64,000 bases of DNA from Eledone cirrhosa. Its lineage: Eukaryota. This document shows, piece after piece, positions 9,531 to 59,939 of this stretch. The stretch covers positions 110,112,001 through 110,176,000 of the forward strand of contig OZ024743.1 of assembly GCA_964016885.1 (NCBI GenBank). Reading direction: 5' to 3'. How positions within the stretch are numbered: the stretch's first letter is position 1; every line of letters starts with the position of its first letter. A model generated the notes under the pieces. The model was given only the letters and a program-made list of their open reading frames with translations, made no database searches and was not told the DNA's origin. The position numbers and the translations under genes were made by a program.

Positions 9531-9725
9531 AGGAATGGGTAGGACCCCGACGGCTGAGCTCAAGCCGTATCGACGGCTAATTCTGAGTCCAGAATTAGCC
9601 GTCGAAACGGCTTGAGCTCAGCCGTCGGGGTCCTACCCATTCCTATTACCCACTCTACTACCCTAAGTATTGAGTACTTTTGTGCGTCATGGTCCATCTG
9701 GTTCCTTACCACATTTCCTTCGTTA
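9531..9725 (+). mobile_element. Fold-back short element, family C (PLE pLTR with 3' half of a hammerhead)
   Basis: Arms ~55 bp around ctaattctg-agtc-cagaattag, followed by GAAA-CGGCT-tgagctc-AGCCG-TC-GGGGTCC. Other copies at 11868-12040, 12256-12400, 12757-12950, 14538-14662 and 59823-59880, with a variant at 28200-28250. Confidence 0.85.
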
Positions 9726-12130
9726 TATATATATATATATATATATATATATATATATATATATATATATATATATATATATATATATATATATATATAT
9801 ATGTGTGTGTGTGTGTGTGTGTGTGTGTGTGTGTGTGTGTGTGTGTGTGTGTATATATATGTGTGCGTGTATATAAATTATCGTAAAGTTAAATTCAATG
9901 CGGTTTCGTTGCTACCATTGGATTACGACCACGCCTTTGACATAGATCGAAATATGTATACGTACCTCGATACAAAAATGCATACACACATGATATATAT
10001 GTAAATAGTTAGATGTAAAGTAAATATAGAATGACTGCCTAATAGTAGAATTCAGAATACGTTGACTATATGTTATTGCTCTATAGAACCTACCTATACT
10101 AGCCCATATTGCAACTCTCCTATACACACACACACACACACAAACACACACACACACACACACACACACACACACACACACACACACACACACACACACA
10201 CACACACACACACACATGGATATATGTGTGTGTGTGTGTGTGTGTGTGTGTGTGTATGTTCATGTGTGTGTTTGTATTCATGTTAGTACGTGTATATACG
10301 TACATTTACACAGATATGCATATGTACATATACATATGTTTTCATGTAAATAGGTAGATGTATCGATAGATATATAATAATAGCTTATCTTCTATTTGTA
10401 TGTTTGATTATCTGTGTTGTTGTTTTATAAGAAAAGCAGTATAATATCACATGTAGAATATGAAGGAAAAATAATTTTTTGAAAAAAAATAAAAAAGGAA
10501 ATATGACTGCATACAACAAAGCATAATCTCAATGTTTGGAAAGGAGAGTTTTAAATCTACTTTATATCACTATAAACTGACAATATTAATTCGTTATTAA
10601 TATGAGATTTGAGAAAATAAACATTCATACAATAAATAGTTGGAAAAATATGTATATGATAATGTATATAGAAGATAAGAAAATATTAAAAACAACAGAA
10701 TAAACCATAATAAAATAAAATAGTCATTATCTTTTAGAAAGAGAATAATTACAAACCTTGAAATAAAAGATATGTTAAAAAAGAAAACAATTAAAATAGA
10801 GTAAAATTGAAATAATATAAAGCAGCACTGCAATAAGAATATTTAATAAAAAAACGATATAAATTAAAGAAAATTATAATATAAAAAAAAATAGTCAAAC
10901 GAAGGATATGAATGACAAAATCATTTCCTCGGCAACAGTAATTGCGTTGTCATAAACAGATAAAATTTCAAACTCCCCTATCAGCTAATTTGCATATTTT
11001 AGCCCTGTCATATTTGAGTAGAAGATTAAAATACGTATTGCACATGTTTGTAAATGATGGGGTTTATTCTCTAAGTTTCAGCGTGTGAGGGAAACGAGAG
11101 GAAATTGATGCCGCAAATATCATCATTTCCATGACAGTTTAAAATGTTTCGATGATAGGAATAGATGAATATTCAAAGAAGTTTGACCTCACACGCTGTG
11201 AGTATGTTTACCGTAGTACACGAAACTAGAGAATGAAGAAACAAAAAAATATTAGTTAAATAATATATATATAACTGTTTAAACATTTTAAAATATTGTT
11301 TGATAAAGGCAAGAATAAAACGTGGGGAGAATCTTCATATGCTATAATAAGGTCTCCTCAGAATAATTGTTAGCCGATTTCAATCTTTCTCGAGATTAGT
11401 TTGTATGGCTATAAGTAATTGTAATTACATATGCATATACACATAAATAAGCCCCCCCGCTCTCTATCTCTCTCTCTCTCTCTCATATATGTATATATGT
11501 ATGTATATATTTATTGTGCATGTGAAGAGGTTCCATAGAATATATTAGGAAAAATGCGCTGTATGTTAAGTAAAGAGCTAAAGTATATAATTATAAATAT
11601 ATTCTCAACACAGCGATATGCTACCTAAGATTTCAAAGCCTATATATACTAGAGACCGTATTTTCGCTGGTACAGCTTATCATTCAGGCAATGGCGTTAT
11701 TTTCAAGATATCTCAAGTGAAACGGAGCTAATCATAATACAATAATAGTTTTGTGCTTTTGTCATTGAGGGGAAGCATCTCCTATATCTATAATTATATA
11801 TTTTTAAATGTATATATATATATATATATATATATATATATATATATATATATATATATATATATATAGGAACGAGTAGGACCCCCACAGCTGAGCTCAA
11901 GCCGTTTCGACGGGTAATTCTGGACTCAGAATTAGCCGTCGGGGTCCTACTCGTTCCTATTACCGACTCTACTACCCTAAGTATTGGGTACTTTGGTGCG
12001 TTATGGTCCTCCTGGTTCCATACCACTTTTCCTTCGTTATCTAGCTCCTATTCCCGTAGTACACCACTTTCCGACCCTACCACGCCGTATCCAGACTTTT
12101 CCGCTAAGCTCAAGTTCTTTCACCCGCACC

Positions 12131-12235
12131 ATGCGAAAACACAACATCGACTTCTCTACCAAGAACATTCCAGTTCCACCGAAAACACTTTACCTTCGGA
12201 TGCTCACGCAAAAAATCGATCTATTTGCGAAAAGA
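12131..12235 (+). pseudogene. N-terminus of a PLE ORF (Naiad-like) directly downstream of a family C repeat
   Basis: MRKHNIDFSTKNIPVPPKTLYLRMLTQKIDLFAKR resembles the YSxKNIPxP..Y...L..K...F.KRMRWKA start of Naiad-type PLE proteins (from memory). Truncated, then a second family C copy follows. Confidence 0.6.
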
Positions 12236-12435
12236 AAAAAGGAGAGAAAAAAGAAAGAGTCCAGAATTAGCCGTCGAAACGGCTCGAGCTCAGCCGTCGG
12301 AGTTCTACTCGTTCCTATTACCCACTCTACTACCCTAAATATTGAGTACTTTGGTGCGTTATAGTCCACTTGGTTCCTTACCACTTTTCCTTCGTTATAT
12401 ATATATATATATATATATATATATATATATATATA

Positions 12436-12655
12436 GTGATAGAACACTGGAAGGTAATATCCGTAGTGGTAGAGCACTCAGTCCATGGGACGAGTTAGGT
12501 AGAAGTCGTTACACAACAGTTAGTTCACCATACCGAGAACAATTGTTTTACCTTAGCGCATCCTCAGCTCGAAATGTCCATTACGAGCTGAGGATCCGTT
12601 AAGATGAAACAATTTTTGTCGGTATGGTGAATTAACTGTTGTGTAACCACTTCTA
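12436..12655. mobile_element. Fold-back short element, family E, hammerhead motif in each arm
   Basis: 12500-12571 is inverted at 12584-12655. Motif (C)CGAG-CTGAgGA..GAAA-CAATTG-TT-CTCGG, with each arm individually mutated. Flanked by (TA)n. Confidence 0.85.
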
Positions 12656-57150: not shown

Positions 57151-57748
57151 ATATATATATGCATATATTCTAAGTCTTTAGGCCGCGTAAGTCTAGAGTT
57201 TCATAAGTGCATTCACAGGATTTCAATAACAGAGACAGTATAAATAGGGGAATGGTGCTGATAGCTGATTTTGAATGGGTATGTAGTGTGGCTTATAGTA
57301 GACGTGAATACAAACATAGAGAGGCTATGGGAGAAAAGTGAGGATTAAAAACATAAAAAATAAAAATATAAAGGGAGTAAAAAAATAATAGAAGGAAAGT
57401 ATGGAAATGTTATTTTCGATAGTTATGATGATAAATATTAAAATAGGTACAAGTAAAATTAGGAAAATTGTGATATTTATATTGATGGATACGATATGCA
57501 AAATAACTAGAAAATAATTTAGATGGATATATGAGAGTATATTGATGAGGGAGAAAACTATATTTAGTGCGTAATGCACTGAATTGATGAACCAGTGGAA
57601 TTGCAATGGACAATGTTGGTGAAGATTATAAGAATTGAAAATAGGATTAAGTAATATTAGCAATATGGTGAAATATTAGGGAACAGGAAAGTGGTAGTGT
57701 TATTTGTATTGGGATGGTTATGTTGCCATTATTACCAGTAATAAAAAA

Positions 57749-58145
57749 GGGGCGGTGAATTGGCAGTATCGGTAGAGAGTCGGACGCCAGGCTTTGCAGC
57801 ATAGTTACGTACCTTTACGATCTGAGTTCAAATCCCGCCGTGGTTAACTTTGCCTCTCATCCTTACGGGGTCGATAAAATATATTACCAGTAATGTAGTA
57901 GGTATTTGCTGGCCATGTGCCAAAGGTAGAAACAATTATTACCAGTAATAATAAGGGCAGTGGATTGGCAGCATCTGTAGAGGGTCTGACGCCTTGATTT
58001 TCAGCAAAAAGTTACGGCTTTTTATTGTCTGAGTTCAAATCCAAACGAGGTTAACTTTGCCTTTCATCCTTACGGGTCGATAAAATAAAGTACCAGTAAT
58101 ACGCTGGTTTATGGCTGACCTCGTGCCAAAACTAGAAATAATAAT
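57749..58145 (+). mobile_element. Two tandem full-length SINEs
   Basis: A/B boxes, core and tail occur twice (57749-57940, 57954-58145). Decayed minus fragments at 58185-58425. Confidence 0.9.
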
Positions 58146-58949
58146 TACCAGTAATGAGTTTTGATTTAGTCAGGGTCAACAAATATTTTCGGAGGGAAAA
58201 GTCGATTAAATCTAGCCCAGTGCCTCTTGGTATTTTAATTATCGACCCCGTAACAATTGCTTCTACTTTTGGTACAACGCAAGCAATTAGACCAGTGCAT
58301 AACTGATGAACTCAGAACGCAATGGGTTACAACTCTATGCCGCAAAGCATGAGTCTGAAACTCTAACGATGTTGTCAATCTAGAACGACAGACAAAGTTA
58401 ACCTCGGTGGGATTTGAACCCACAAATTATATGATTTTTGTCTCAGTTTTGTATTTTTATTATTTCGTCAAAGTTCTATCGTCAGCTCAATAAGTATTTG
58501 GTTCCTGTATGCCAAATCTTTTCTCCGGTTTTATTTCATCAACCCATGTTTTCTTATTGTAGTTGCATTCAATGTCAGCTCGTGCGTTTGCATATGCACC
58601 TGTGTGTGTGTGTGTTTTTTTGTGGTTAGCATGTGTATGTTTGTGTATATGTGTCTTTTTTGTGTAAACGTTTGTATCAATATTTCACTGTTCATTCTTT
58701 GTGTTATGTTTCCTATTCTGATTTCAATGTTTAGGATGTCAAGTAATAGTGTTTCTATCTATATATATATTGTGTAAGTGATGCGCGAGCAACGGAAGTG
58801 GATGATAAAGTTATACCTGTATCAATATAGAGTGTGTTACCGTGAATGTTCAAAGGTGCATAAATATAAACGCGTAGTCTAATATGTAGTATGCGCAGTG
58901 CAGTAAATACATGTTTCTTTGTGGTTGATTGTATGGTACCTCCATAAAA

Positions 58950-59785
58950 GGTACCTCCATAAAAAACACTTATTAGTAATACATACCCTTTTCAAAGACA
59001 TCCCTGTATATATAAGAAATGCATAATCTGTAAACTAAGATCCCATATTAACTGTAACACTAGAAATGTAGTATATAGCATAATATGTACAGAAGGACAA
59101 TGTAGAGATAAGAATATAGTGTACATAGGTGAGACAGCTCCTAGTATAGGGGAACGGTTAAATGAACACTGGCAAGGGCTTCAAGATAAAAAAAAGAATC
59201 ATCAGTATTCCACCAACATGCTAAAATAGAACATAAGGGCAAATTTGAGAACATAGAAATAAAAATATAATCTACACGCAGAAAACACGCAATGTTTAGA
59301 CAAATCACACAGGCAATAGACATAAATGAACTCCAACCAAAATTAAATAGAAAACATGAATGGAATAGCAAAAATCACAACTTACAATTAATGACAAAAT
59401 GGAAACACACACACACATAGAACAAACAACCAACCAGTAAATGTAAATAAACAAAGAAATAAACAAATAAAAACACACACAGACATCCGGATGTAACACA
59501 TGCGCAAGCTAACCACACAACACACACAAAAACAAGATGGCGTAGGACAGAATTAATGAGAGGCACAAAACAAAGAAAAGAATCCCCAGTCCCTGAAGAG
59601 GTCGTAGAATGTGTGACTAAAGAACTTTAACAATATATGAACAACCGTCCGGTTGTGGAACCAACCAACCAACCGGAAATTTATAAATTCTTAAATTTAT
59701 AAATTTAATTTATAATATATTGGAGTGAAAGCATCTGGTGCGTGTGTTTCTTATTGGCAACATTAACCTCCCAAAGTATAACAAT
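58950..59785 (+). mobile_element. PLE family A 3' fragment (GIY-YIG + pLTR)
   Basis: Colinear with 23808-24645. The hammerhead GAAA is mutated to TAAA. Confidence 0.9.
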
Positions 59786-59939
59786 ATATATATATATATA
59801 TATATATATATATATATATATACAGAATTAGCCGTCGAAACGGCTTGAGCTCAGCCGTCGAGGTCCTACTCGTTCCTATATATATATATATATATAGTTC
59901 GTTTCTGACCCTCCCAAAGAATAACAATATATATATAGT

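Follow-up and report, generated by a model that had tools for sequence, protein, structure and literature searches.

The insertions described for Penelope-like elements (PLEs) are strongly 5' truncated, contain a partial tandem repeat or pseudo-LTR with a hammerhead motif, carry an inverted 5'-truncated copy adjoining the 5' end and an extension or 'tail' of 30-40 nt at one end, and occupy (TA)n or AT-rich targets, as set out in Craig et al. 2021 (PMC8557442) and Goubert et al. 2022 (PMC8969392). The former places transcription start within the pseudo-LTR in Penelope and Chlamys-3. In vitro, PAc, a Poseidon element of Anolis, nicks and extends both strands, prefers AT-rich targets and initiates reverse transcription at two neighbouring internal positions, which delimit the 'tail' and lie 111-118 nt inside the ORF, while its hammerhead spans the start codon and is dispensable for insertion (Frangieh et al. 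2024, PMC11167929). PLE hammerheads with U3-A8 replacing C3-G8 have been described (Cervera and de la Pena 2014, PMC4209133), and C3-A8 is not known as such a variant; the U3-A8 motifs are type I, with a large helix II in which a base is bulged close to the 5' end, a palindromic helix III loop and opposite-strand copies 100-700 bp apart. Animal non-LTR retrozymes (Li et al. 2026, preprint) are short non-coding pseudo-LTR derivatives with hammerhead sequence, arranged as tandem units with complete ribozymes.

Family C of Eledone cirrhosa comprises (TA)n insertions of the 3'-terminal 64-144 bases of a 3.6-kb PLE, and its inverted 5'-truncated partner and 'tail' match the known PLE signature. The remaining insertion traits listed above for PLEs are also shared. 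Unlike the PLE insertions in those accounts, family C copies are mostly extreme miniatures with arms of 55-60 and 135-140 nt, their tail is 80 nt rather than 30-40 nt long and their 5' ends cluster in a zone of 11 nt; a literature search on PLE insertions found no account of such a 5'-end zone. Like PAc, family C favours AT-rich targets and would have had both strands nicked and extended and reverse transcription started at two adjacent internal sites bounding the 'tail', whereas its two 3' ends precede the ATG by 180 and 100 nt and are both preceded by the hammerhead. Like retrozymes, family C mini-copies are short non-coding pseudo-LTR derivatives with hammerhead sequence, but they are without the catalytic 5' half and lie scattered through microsatellites, for the most part paired in inverted orientation.

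The window, the whole 64,000-nt stretch analysed, spans positions 110,112,001-110,176,000 of the forward strand of OZ024743.1 (GCA_964016885.1). It contains 8 matches to CAGAATTAGCCGTC with at most 2 mismatches against 0.25 expected, and 0 of 100 shuffles reached 8. The five copies named in a preliminary description of this DNA were located, with arms or starts at ~9586, 11927, 12258/12262, 12814 and 59823, and a sixth copy was absent from that account. Their segments are as follows, unit positions being those of the parent element.

9529..9585, minus strand: short inverted arm, unit 3499 to 3443, without the 80-nt tail; outer end adjoins (TA)n
9586..9725, plus strand: long arm, unit 3439 to 3578; AGTC at 9586-9589 and CAGAATT from 9590
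9604-9607, 9607-9625 and 9624-9626, plus strand: GAAA, helix III and GTC of this long arm; cleavage predicted after 9626
9645 and 9725, plus strand: ends in this long arm, with the second 3' end site after 9645 and the tail end CGTTA at 9725, then (TA)n
11866..11926, minus strand: short inverted arm, unit 3499 to 3439; whole helix III segment kept
11927..12039, plus strand: arm, unit 3443 to 3578, with a 23-nt deletion between AGCCGTC direct repeats
12040..12235, plus strand: element head, unit 1 to 196, joined directly to the tail at the pseudo-LTR junction; ATG of the ORF at 12131
12236..12257, plus strand: A/G-rich filler without a match in the unit, separating head position 196 from the following arm
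12258..12397, plus strand: arm, unit 3439 to 3578; G before the start; ends in (TA)n
12755..12811, minus strand: short inverted arm, unit 3499 to 3443, then the 2-nt filler TA at 12812-12813
12814..12949, plus strand: long arm, unit 3443 to 3578; CAGAATTAACCGTC, one substitution
14540..14661, plus strand: sixth copy, direct start at GAAAC (unit 3457) to 3578; (TA)n on both sides
59823..59879, plus strand: tail-less direct copy, unit 3443 to 3499; (TA)n on both sides

All six copies are followed directly 3' by (TA)n. Because the copy at 59823..59879 stops after TTCCTA without a tail, this site is a 3' end in its own right. Downstream of the break in the 9586 copy, the GAAA, the ACGGCT/AGCCGT helix with its GAGCTC loop and the GTC were found as first reported, and none of the window copies holds a CUGANGA-like box; in the 11927 copy, unlike the 9586 copy, the 23-base segment containing GAAA and helix III is deleted. 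Both loop orientations, agtc at 9586-9589 and gact at 11923-11926, were also present. AGTC is the four parental bases 5' of CAGAATT, however, and GACT in the arm 11866..11926 is its reverse complement, and the orientation merely shows which arm is 4 nt longer rather than marking a native hairpin loop.

The parental unit is 3,578 bp with the tail repeated upstream as a pseudo-LTR. Locus L031 has tail motifs at 4596 and 8174 on either side of its ORFs, a spacing of 3,578 bp, and the tail-head junction was found in 30 of 30 loci examined. By eye, the L031 ORFs include a YRDD motif and a C-terminal ..VIYQC..YIGLT.. region, and homologues of 937-953 aa are 35-40% identical. For the reverse transcriptase and C-terminal GIY-YIG endonuclease expected in the single ORF of an EN+ PLE, protein-family support is weak: a Pfam search of the element's own ORFs returned no domain match, GIY-YIG in the homologues was sub-threshold (E 0.0011-0.069) and a predicted protein model with pLDDT 49 had no significant structural match, its weak non-significant rows being I-TevI, T4 EndoII and retroviral RTs. 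Atlas neighbours bear HTH_animal, DUF8422 and RVT_1. Insertion into microsatellites was of the PLE type, with (TA)n directly 3' in 57 of 64 copies with an exact tail end, and an adjacent inverted 5'-truncated partner occurred in 60 of 90 sampled copies; this partner and the one-sided tail are also PLE traits.

The pseudo-LTR of the parents contains a type I hammerhead-like motif, ACCCC-YUGANAA-long helix II-GAAA-helix III-GUC-GGGGU, in which stem I is ACCCC/GGGGT, helix III is 6 bp and the native helix II, CGGCTA(T)TTC...GAATTAGCCG, has a distal part of ~33 nt. Among the 100 parents listed, position 3 of the 5' box is U in 80 and C in 20, N7 is G in 82, U in 12 and A in 6, and position 8 is A in all 100; the canonical CUGANGA core occurs in none of them though GAAA and GUC are present. 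The 20 listed parents with C3 and A8 would be unable to form a pair of the U3-A8 type. With the U3-A8 PLE hammerheads (PMC4209133), the motif shares all the traits given above, whereas its helix III is a stable 6-7 bp against 1-2 bp in the minimal metazoan motif and its helix II has the distal extension of ~33 nt. The type I order I-core-II-GAAA-III-NUH-I fits 47 aligned parents with 93% of cells paired (helix I, 100%) against 22-52% with slid partners, a score that denotes compatibility and not proof as the structure was drawn from the very sequences scored. Rfam gave no match within the window at the gathering score, nor in 4 parents at E<=10; covariation amounted to 1 compensatory pair, with a score equal to that of shuffles in these near-identical parents (92% column identity), and the minimum-energy fold differs from the hammerhead (z -0.13). 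The putative hammerhead assignment is made from the motif and its helices.

The preliminary description had predicted parents with a stem I arm and CTGANGA immediately upstream of a native hairpin formed by the gacggctaattctg arm. An ACCCC arm and a hammerhead-like core do lie upstream of CAGAATT in the parents, but this core reads YTGANAA and sits ~48 nt upstream of CAGAATT rather than directly before the gacggctaattctg arm. Since CTGANGA is absent and the native hairpin with this arm (the inverted 14-mer) is missing from all 47 aligned parents, the prediction fails in its strict form. Its broader points stand: full-length parents exist, the breaks fall within helix II of their motif, and the truncated copies have lost the 5' half of that motif.

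Breakpoints were tabulated for the first 90 exact matches of the downstream 38-mer, an unselected sample out of 18,606 matches in total. Forty-nine of the 90 copies start or invert at unit 3435-3445, an 11-base zone around AGTC/CAGAATT, against ~5 if starts were even over the 201 positions examined, and 29 stops were scattered over the 48 positions downstream. The same inverted 14-mers are found at 6,804 loci genome-wide, and ~15% of arms (4,272 of 27,646) read through the zone. Zone ends are ragged over 3434-3446, with many hairpin arms reaching 3435-3437 and about 7 direct starts at ~3427-3433 among the direct-start loci listed, so a single sharp start site cannot account for all ends. As 26 of 30 copies with the tail-head junction read upstream beyond the zone, most long templates did not begin at A3439.

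The two alternative 3' ends, after TTCCTA (unit ~3498-3499) and after CGTTA (3578), both adjoin (TA)n, and in a pair each of them terminates one arm, leaving fixed outer ends 80 nt apart. The outer ends of the inverted arms fell at 3494-3501 in 48 of 60 cases and at 3578 in 1. The inner ends of both arms cluster at 3435-3446 (42 of 60 short arms), and 7 of those 42 short arms pair with a long arm starting elsewhere, at 3463-3493. The 23-nt deletion is confined to the tailed arm in 3 of 3 cases, the window copy and loci L074 and L109. The arms thus behave like two separate cDNAs whose inner ends are set independently. In human L1 twin priming, a second cDNA from the other target strand likewise gives an inverted 5' segment head-to-head with the 3' segment. 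L1 inversion junctions are scattered and the second priming site is variable, unlike family C, where priming sites and ends are both fixed.

The preliminary description attributed the pairs to fold-back on the ribozyme's hairpin, whereby reverse transcription would stall at the helix II hairpin loop and the nascent cDNA snap back, one event giving both arms. The zone does lie in the 3' strand of distal helix II beside the GUUC/UUUC loop, and some junctions are perfect or near-perfect palindromes (..GGACTAA/TTAGTCC.. at L097; zero-length loop at 2 of 50 loci). Fold-back predicts symmetric arms, yet the fixed outer ends differ (3498 and 3578), the inner ends of the 7 pairs above are 20-50 nt apart and a deletion may sit in one arm only, and this asymmetry contradicts the snap-back; the missing 14-mer and the coupled fates of the arms described below also speak against it. 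The distal hairpin is moreover weak and AU-rich, whereas the GC-rich helices II and III downstream were crossed with the scattered stops noted above. We regard this explanation as highly improbable.

At least 31 distinct loops occur among 50 listed of the 6,804 loci, with fillers that include T16, A17 and short stretches similar to nearby arm sequence. Another explanation is that a few hairpin masters were amplified and the ragged loops are later deletions at the palindrome centre. Long palindromes are unstable, and simple loops do recur, TA at 2 of the 50 listed loci and in the window, and GA/TC and AGTC/GACT 5 times each. Against inheritance are the number of distinct loops, many with inserted rather than deleted bases, and a complex filler present at just 2 loci genome-wide, where it accompanies the tailed arm at one and the tail-less arm at the other. 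The same junction types also occur across subfamilies, with the arms of each pair carrying their own subfamily's variants, and direct starts without an inverted arm use the same zone. Such inheritance with palindrome decay seems a very poor candidate explanation.

Of the direct-start loci, 16 of 59 show an untemplated G ahead of A3439, compared with 2 of 81 ahead of C3443 as a control. For 21 head-to-head pairs in which one arm extends beyond the zone, the other arm likewise crosses it in 16 cases, ends within it in 1 and falls short of it in 4, while 12 of 61 cross it in the general sample (Fisher P 2.5e-8). An intrinsic stall, as first supposed, predicts an equal stop rate per pass and does not agree with 16 of 17 partners that reach the zone passing it against 12 of 61. 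Composite copies have variable acceptors (unit ~153, 196, 832, 833 and 855) and a fixed donor at 3436-3455. Taken together, the untemplated G, the coupled arm fates and the shared donor zone of the composites, all read from genomic sequence, make an RNA end likely rather than a stall.

The family C 'hairpins' are therefore best regarded, with a fair degree of probability, as two separate cDNAs on the strands of (TA)n that both ran off an RNA 5' end near A3439. Each arm would be a first-strand cDNA, primed separately on one of the two strands of the target, and the two 3' ends would be two reverse-transcription start sites with the 80 nt between them forming the PLE 'tail'. Both cDNAs would run off a template RNA whose 5' end lies within helix II, on or close to A3439 (the first base of AGTCC), and be joined afterwards by end joining or a template jump that leaves variable loops. 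The zone would correspond to a genuine RNA 5' end, for which capped initiation of transcription within the pseudo-LTR is the most likely origin, although untemplated addition to an uncapped end could likewise account for the extra G. The TTAGTCC at the zone may be Inr-like, a tentative promoter reading. An RNA starting there would lack the hammerhead 5' half and would not self-cut. A minority of templates would be hammerhead-cleaved RNAs with 5' ends at G3480, where copy 5' ends show a small excess: six of the 29 starts downstream of the zone fall at 3479-3481 against 1.8 expected (P 0.011), and ~4 of 14 direct starts begin at GGGGTC.

Alternatively, the element's protein, bound to the hammerhead/helix II region of the pseudo-LTR copy where it assembles, could act as a roadblock that ends both cDNAs with no RNA end at that point. 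This would explain why cDNAs often stop at their first encounter with the zone but seldom do so if they grow long and enter the pseudo-LTR again upstream, it could couple both arms of one insertion, and PAc hammerhead cleavage requires protein, implying nearby binding (PMC11167929). A roadblock does not predict the untemplated G specific to A3439 or the template-jump-like fillers (T16, A17, element head), and the window composite has cDNA that ends in the zone twice in a single insertion; we consider it rather unlikely. The RNA 5' end could also arise from an endonucleolytic cut in the distal loop of helix II, by an unrecognised ribozyme or a host or element nuclease, instead of transcription initiation. 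Such a cut would leave genomic footprints identical to those of a transcription start, cutting within a loop could well produce the raggedness over 3434-3446 and GUC/C at 3440-3443 resembles a hammerhead triplet. By eye, however, this GUC lacks a matching GAAA/CUGANGA arrangement, the Rfam search of 4 parents at E<=10 produced no ribozyme family and a cap fits the extra G better, leaving a cut with little likelihood.

A further and doubtful extension of the run-off from an RNA 5' end is that the element starts transcription inside its own hammerhead and transfers or integrates a strong-stop-like cDNA, the ribozyme acting as a fate switch. If so, every transcript would begin with a dead half-ribozyme while its 3' pseudo-LTR held a live one, and this terminally redundant RNA would be reverse-transcribed from sites only 60-140 nt from its 5' end. 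The strong-stop-like cDNA would then move to another template, giving composites, or be integrated unchanged, and direct integration would have loaded the TA microsatellites of the genome with mini-hairpins, more than 20,000 in number and all dead ends. Under the same proposal, copies beginning at G3480 would record in vivo cleavage by a PLE hammerhead, the first such footprints in a genome.

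Longer copies in the 3.0 Gb genome show family C to be the final stretch of a unit of 3,578 bp, and unit coordinates were taken unchanged from bases 4732-8309 of the sampled locus L031. Two tails at this locus stand 3,578 bp apart and flank the open reading frames (ORFs) as a pseudo-LTR, the tail adjoining the head (TCTAGCTCC...) directly and the ORF start lying about 100 nt further on. The ORFs encode a YRDD motif and, towards the C terminus, a region reading ..VIYQC..YIGLT..; homologues (937-953 aa) share 35-40% identity. The element was filed as a Penelope-like element (PLE) on architecture because of the pseudo-LTR, the inverted partners, the one-sided tail, the hammerhead motif within the pseudo-LTR and the (TA)n targets, all described for PLEs (PMC8557442, PMC8969392). 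Formal protein evidence was weak: Pfam gave no match to the element's own ORFs and sub-threshold GIY-YIG matches only in the homologues, PDB searches by sequence and by profile gave no match to the protein, and its AlphaFold model was poor (pLDDT 49), with no significant Foldseek match and with I-TevI, T4 EndoII and retroviral reverse transcriptases among the non-significant rows.

Landmarks of the full-length unit
3390-3394: ACCCC, the stem I arm
3395-3401: 5' core box
3439-3442: AGTC
From 3443: CAGAATT
3457-3460: GAAA
Ending at 3479: GUC
From 3480: GGGGTCC
Ending at 3498: TTCCTA
3578: end of the tail, CGTTA

The 14-mer CAGAATTAGCCGTC occurred eight times in the window with up to two mismatches, against a mean of 0.25 in shuffled sequence, and none of 100 shuffles reached eight. 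Reading of the sequence and comparison with the full-length unit gave six family C copies, every one within (TA)n.

Family C copies by window position
9529-9725: inverted arm, agtc and long arm
11866-12397: composite copy
12755-12949: inverted arm, ta and long arm
14540-14661: direct start at GAAAC, absent from the preliminary description
59823-59879: direct start with an early end at TTCCTA

Several features of the preliminary description were confirmed. The loop between arms stands in two orientations (agtc at 9586-9589, gact at 11923-11926), the sequence downstream of it includes GAAA, an ACGGCT/AGCCGT helix with a GAGCTC loop and GTC, all within 9604-9626, and a CUGANGA-like box was found in none of the window copies on comparison with the unit. 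The start or inversion of copies at one spot was likewise upheld and is a genome-scale phenomenon. A different palindromic element of about 190 bp lies between two TA repeats at 12437-12658; its arms read gttacacaacagttagttcaccataccga.. and the reverse complement, and the element, unrelated to the PLE tail, looks like a MITE or other hairpin insertion. A stretch of about 47 nt belonging to the long 3' untranslated region of the element (unit 2822-2868) stands alone at window positions 8509-8552, 27442-27490 and 40408-40453 and also occurs close to many sampled loci; the element may have captured it as an independent short repeat, or may have given rise to it.

A 38-mer downstream of the zone in which arms start or invert (unit ~3435-3446, around AGTC|CAGAATT) had 18,606 exact copies in the genome. 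The first 90 of these along contig C1, none dropped, were scored for the 5' start of the arm bearing the 38-mer.

5' starts of the 90 sampled arms
Unit 3435-3445: 49 of 90, two counted by eye, allowing for a 23-nt internal deletion
Upstream of unit 3435: 12 of 90
Scattered over unit 3449-3493: 29 of 90

An even spread would place about 5 of the 90 starts in the zone, where 49 were observed. Exact whole-genome counts gave 27,646 arms with unit 3443-3472 and 4,272 (about 15%) with unit 3433-3467, and the pattern gacggctaattctg-N(0-24)-cagaattagccgtc matched 6,804 loci. Literature searches brought up no account of PLE hammerheads with such a hot spot of 5' ends. A 3' splice acceptor (TTTAG| or CCAG|) was rejected, the ends not falling at 3441 or 3446 and the deletion junctions carrying fillers.

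Forty-seven parents, the longer copies that keep sequence upstream of CAGAATT, were aligned and read ACCCC-YTGANAAG-(C/A/T)TCGGCTATT...~33 nt...GAATTAGCCGTC-GAAA-CGGCTTGAGCTCAGCCG-TC-GGGGT, a type I hammerhead topology with all invariant bases present except two. AGTC is plain parental sequence 5' of CAGAATT. The parent that had been predicted, with a 5' box immediately before the gacggctaattctg arm, does not exist, the inverted 14-mer being present in none of the 47. A degenerate pattern with core positions 3, 4, 7 and 8 left free had 5,016 copies, and in the 100 matches listed and scored position 8 was A and position 4 was U throughout, position 3 was U in 80 and C in 20, and N7 was G in 82, U in 12 and A in 6. 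The expected CUGANGA is thus absent from parents, since position 8 was always A among the matches listed. Published PLE hammerheads already show U3-A8 as a core covariation, and they also have a large helix II with a bulged base (PMC4209133). The 20 listed parents that have C3 along with A8 include the youngest-looking copies with long ORFs.

Across the 47-parent alignment 93% of helix cells were paired, compared with 22-52% for slid partners, the structure having been drawn from the same sequences, and no usable covariation was found in these helices. Rfam gave no match in the window at the gathering score and only microsatellite artefacts, without any ribozyme family, for four parents at E<=10, and the minimum-energy fold of a parent differed from the hammerhead and was no more stable than shuffles. 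The parental sequence is called a hammerhead-like motif, of putative activity. Three sampled parents of one subfamily carry A at helix II position 10.2 (GATCGG), able to pair with U11.2, and AGCTGT (G-U wobble) as the helix III 3' strand, both changes being compatible with the hammerhead structure. At locus L034 (G000 C1, near 3,400) one arm has the TCGAAA between AGCCG and CGGCT inverted to TTTCGA. The helix II 3' strand is also complementary to the helix III 5' strand, and pairing of the two gives a hairpin that is an alternative to the hammerhead fold and competes with it. By eye, a second hammerhead using GUC|C at 3440-3443 was dismissed for want of a core or GAAA, and an HDV-like 5' ribozyme for want of P1 pairing and of an Rfam match.

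An adjacent inverted arm was present in 60 of the 90 sampled copies, with its outer end at unit 3494-3501 in 48 and at 3578 in one; alignment stopped earlier, at 3462-3491, in the other eleven. Unlike this partner the sampled arm runs to 3578, and a pair therefore has one TTCCTA end and one CGTTA end, a one-sided extension that is the PLE 'tail'. The window copy at 59823 shows that TTCCTA can serve by itself as a 3' end. The protein of the only PLE studied in vitro nicks both strands and extends them, and reverse transcription begins at two nearby internal sites bounding the tail (PMC11167929).

Inner ends of the short arm fell at 3435-3446 in 42 of the 60 pairs, including seven in which the long arm started 20-50 nt downstream. 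A 23-nt deletion (GAAA and helix III) between AGCCGTC direct repeats affected only the tailed arm in all three cases (window copy, 11927-11945; loci L074 and L109), a skip such as one expects across the base of a hairpin in the template. Among 50 hairpin loci listed of the 6,804, loops were of at least 31 kinds and up to 20 nt long, some loci having no loop at all, and fillers included short stretches resembling nearby arm sequence as well as T16 and A17 runs. One complex filler of 6-7 nt occurred at only two loci genome-wide, with unrelated flanks, which rules against amplification of hairpin masters; it was joined to the tailed arm at one locus and to the tail-less arm at the other. Loop orientation therefore records merely which arm was longer. 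The fold-back of a stalled reverse transcriptase at the native stem II hairpin, proposed initially, is contradicted as a single event by the fixed but differing outer ends, the asymmetric inner ends, the one-arm deletions and the varied loops, and the hairpins instead represent the known signature of PLE insertion in extreme form. At several loci (L042, L073; G000 C1:163683063 and C1:274804191) arm ends coincide exactly with runs of 6-17 T or A, oriented so that the cDNA strand bears T, as if the reverse transcriptase had jumped onto a poly(A) tail.

Three results argue for the zone being a real template end rather than a stall. Direct-start copies were defined by AGTCC within 8 nt after a TA repeat, and the first 100 listed represented 59 distinct loci, where A3439 was preceded by G at 16 loci, by C at 6, by A at 5 and by T at 32, the T being uninformative because it is both the parental and the repeat base. 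At the control position, before C3443, G was found in 2 of 81 loci. An untemplated G before A3439 is the trace that run-off at an RNA 5' end would leave. Untemplated G at run-off is classically a mark of a capped RNA 5' end.

The second result came from 59 loci chosen for long copies, which held 21 proper head-to-head pairs in which one arm extended beyond the zone. The other arm passed the zone in 16, stopped in it in one and stopped before reaching it in four, whereas 12 of 61 zone-reaching arms passed in the unselected sample (Fisher P 2.5e-8). The zone was crossed or not by both arms together, which fits template length as the deciding factor. A roadblock tied to the assembled RNP, stopping cDNAs in the zone, is a less probable but still live rival.

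The third result was the structure of composite copies, which combine variable acceptor points in the body with a donor in or beside the zone, often with filler between. The cDNA of the window composite ends in the zone twice.

Acceptor points of composite copies
Unit ~153: L111
Unit 196: window composite
Unit 832: L004
Unit 833: L017
Unit 855: L029

The internally deleted copies at L004, L017 (832-833) and L029 (855) have nearly the same acceptor point in the reverse transcriptase region but different fillers, which suggests that landing is favoured there or that their RNAs shared a 3' end.

The template RNA would accordingly begin in the zone, at or near A3439, where the TTAGTCC context resembles an initiator. 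An RNA beginning at A3439 would have only half of helix II and neither stem I nor the 5' core, and would therefore not cut itself, in keeping with the uncut GUC in the copies. The earlier proposal that the ribozyme dictates the insert stands in so far as the zone lies within helix II of the U3-A8 hammerhead-like motif, but the link is positional, and most likely the zone falls in helix II because the template RNA begins there. Transcription start within the pseudo-LTR is known for Penelope and Chlamys-3 (PMC8557442). Putative Pol III boxes in the tail were set aside, showing weak resemblance by eye and the wrong distance.

Other observations stand against a single start. Tail-head junction copies read upstream past the zone in 26 of 30 cases and most long templates therefore began elsewhere, arm ends are ragged over 3434-3446 with hairpin arms often reaching 3435-3437, and about seven of the direct-start loci listed begin at ~3427-3433. 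An RNA 5' end made in the zone by processing instead of initiation is improbable, and more so than the roadblock. No RNA record was listed for the sequence; the four runs found, from one study, are contigs of unknown kind that on L031 mirror genomic copies, are uninformative on expression, and have loose ends at places matching unit 3435, 3499 and 3579.

PLE transposition is still poorly understood, and only one element has been used in vitro to study how inverted or tandem insertions and the 'tail' arise. Tens of thousands of miniature insertions are present in this genome, and their junctions can be read like a sequencing experiment: they show two fixed start sites, a common end of the template, bases added without a template, jumps between templates and ends that a ribozyme may have cut. 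As a natural archive of reverse transcription by a PLE, family C is unusually rich. Were the zone confirmed as a capped start, the PLE promoter would lie inside the hammerhead and a ribozyme role in 3'-end formation or as a template-fate switch would become testable. The approximately 6,800 perfect 55-bp palindromes within TA repeats are likely to cause assembly errors and fragile sites and to yield hairpin RNAs.

Starts at 3479-3481, the predicted hammerhead cleavage product, made up 6 of the 29 downstream starts against 1.8 expected (P 0.011), and of roughly 14 direct starts lying no more than 30 nt from the anchor three were exactly at GGGGTC and one at GCGGTC. These starts hint, and no more than hint, at ribozyme cutting of some templates. 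In long copies 5' ends or inversion points also gather, in smaller number than in the zone, at unit 3346-3352 (for example L011, L022, L026, L027, L051, L075 and L137/L138); this second cluster directly precedes GACCAATCC, which resembles a CCAAT box and lies some 90 nt upstream of A3439. At each of two places (G000 C1:15465549-15466016 and C1:49978535-49978901) three same-orientation tail copies 155-231 bp apart formed a short tandem array of the mini-copy.
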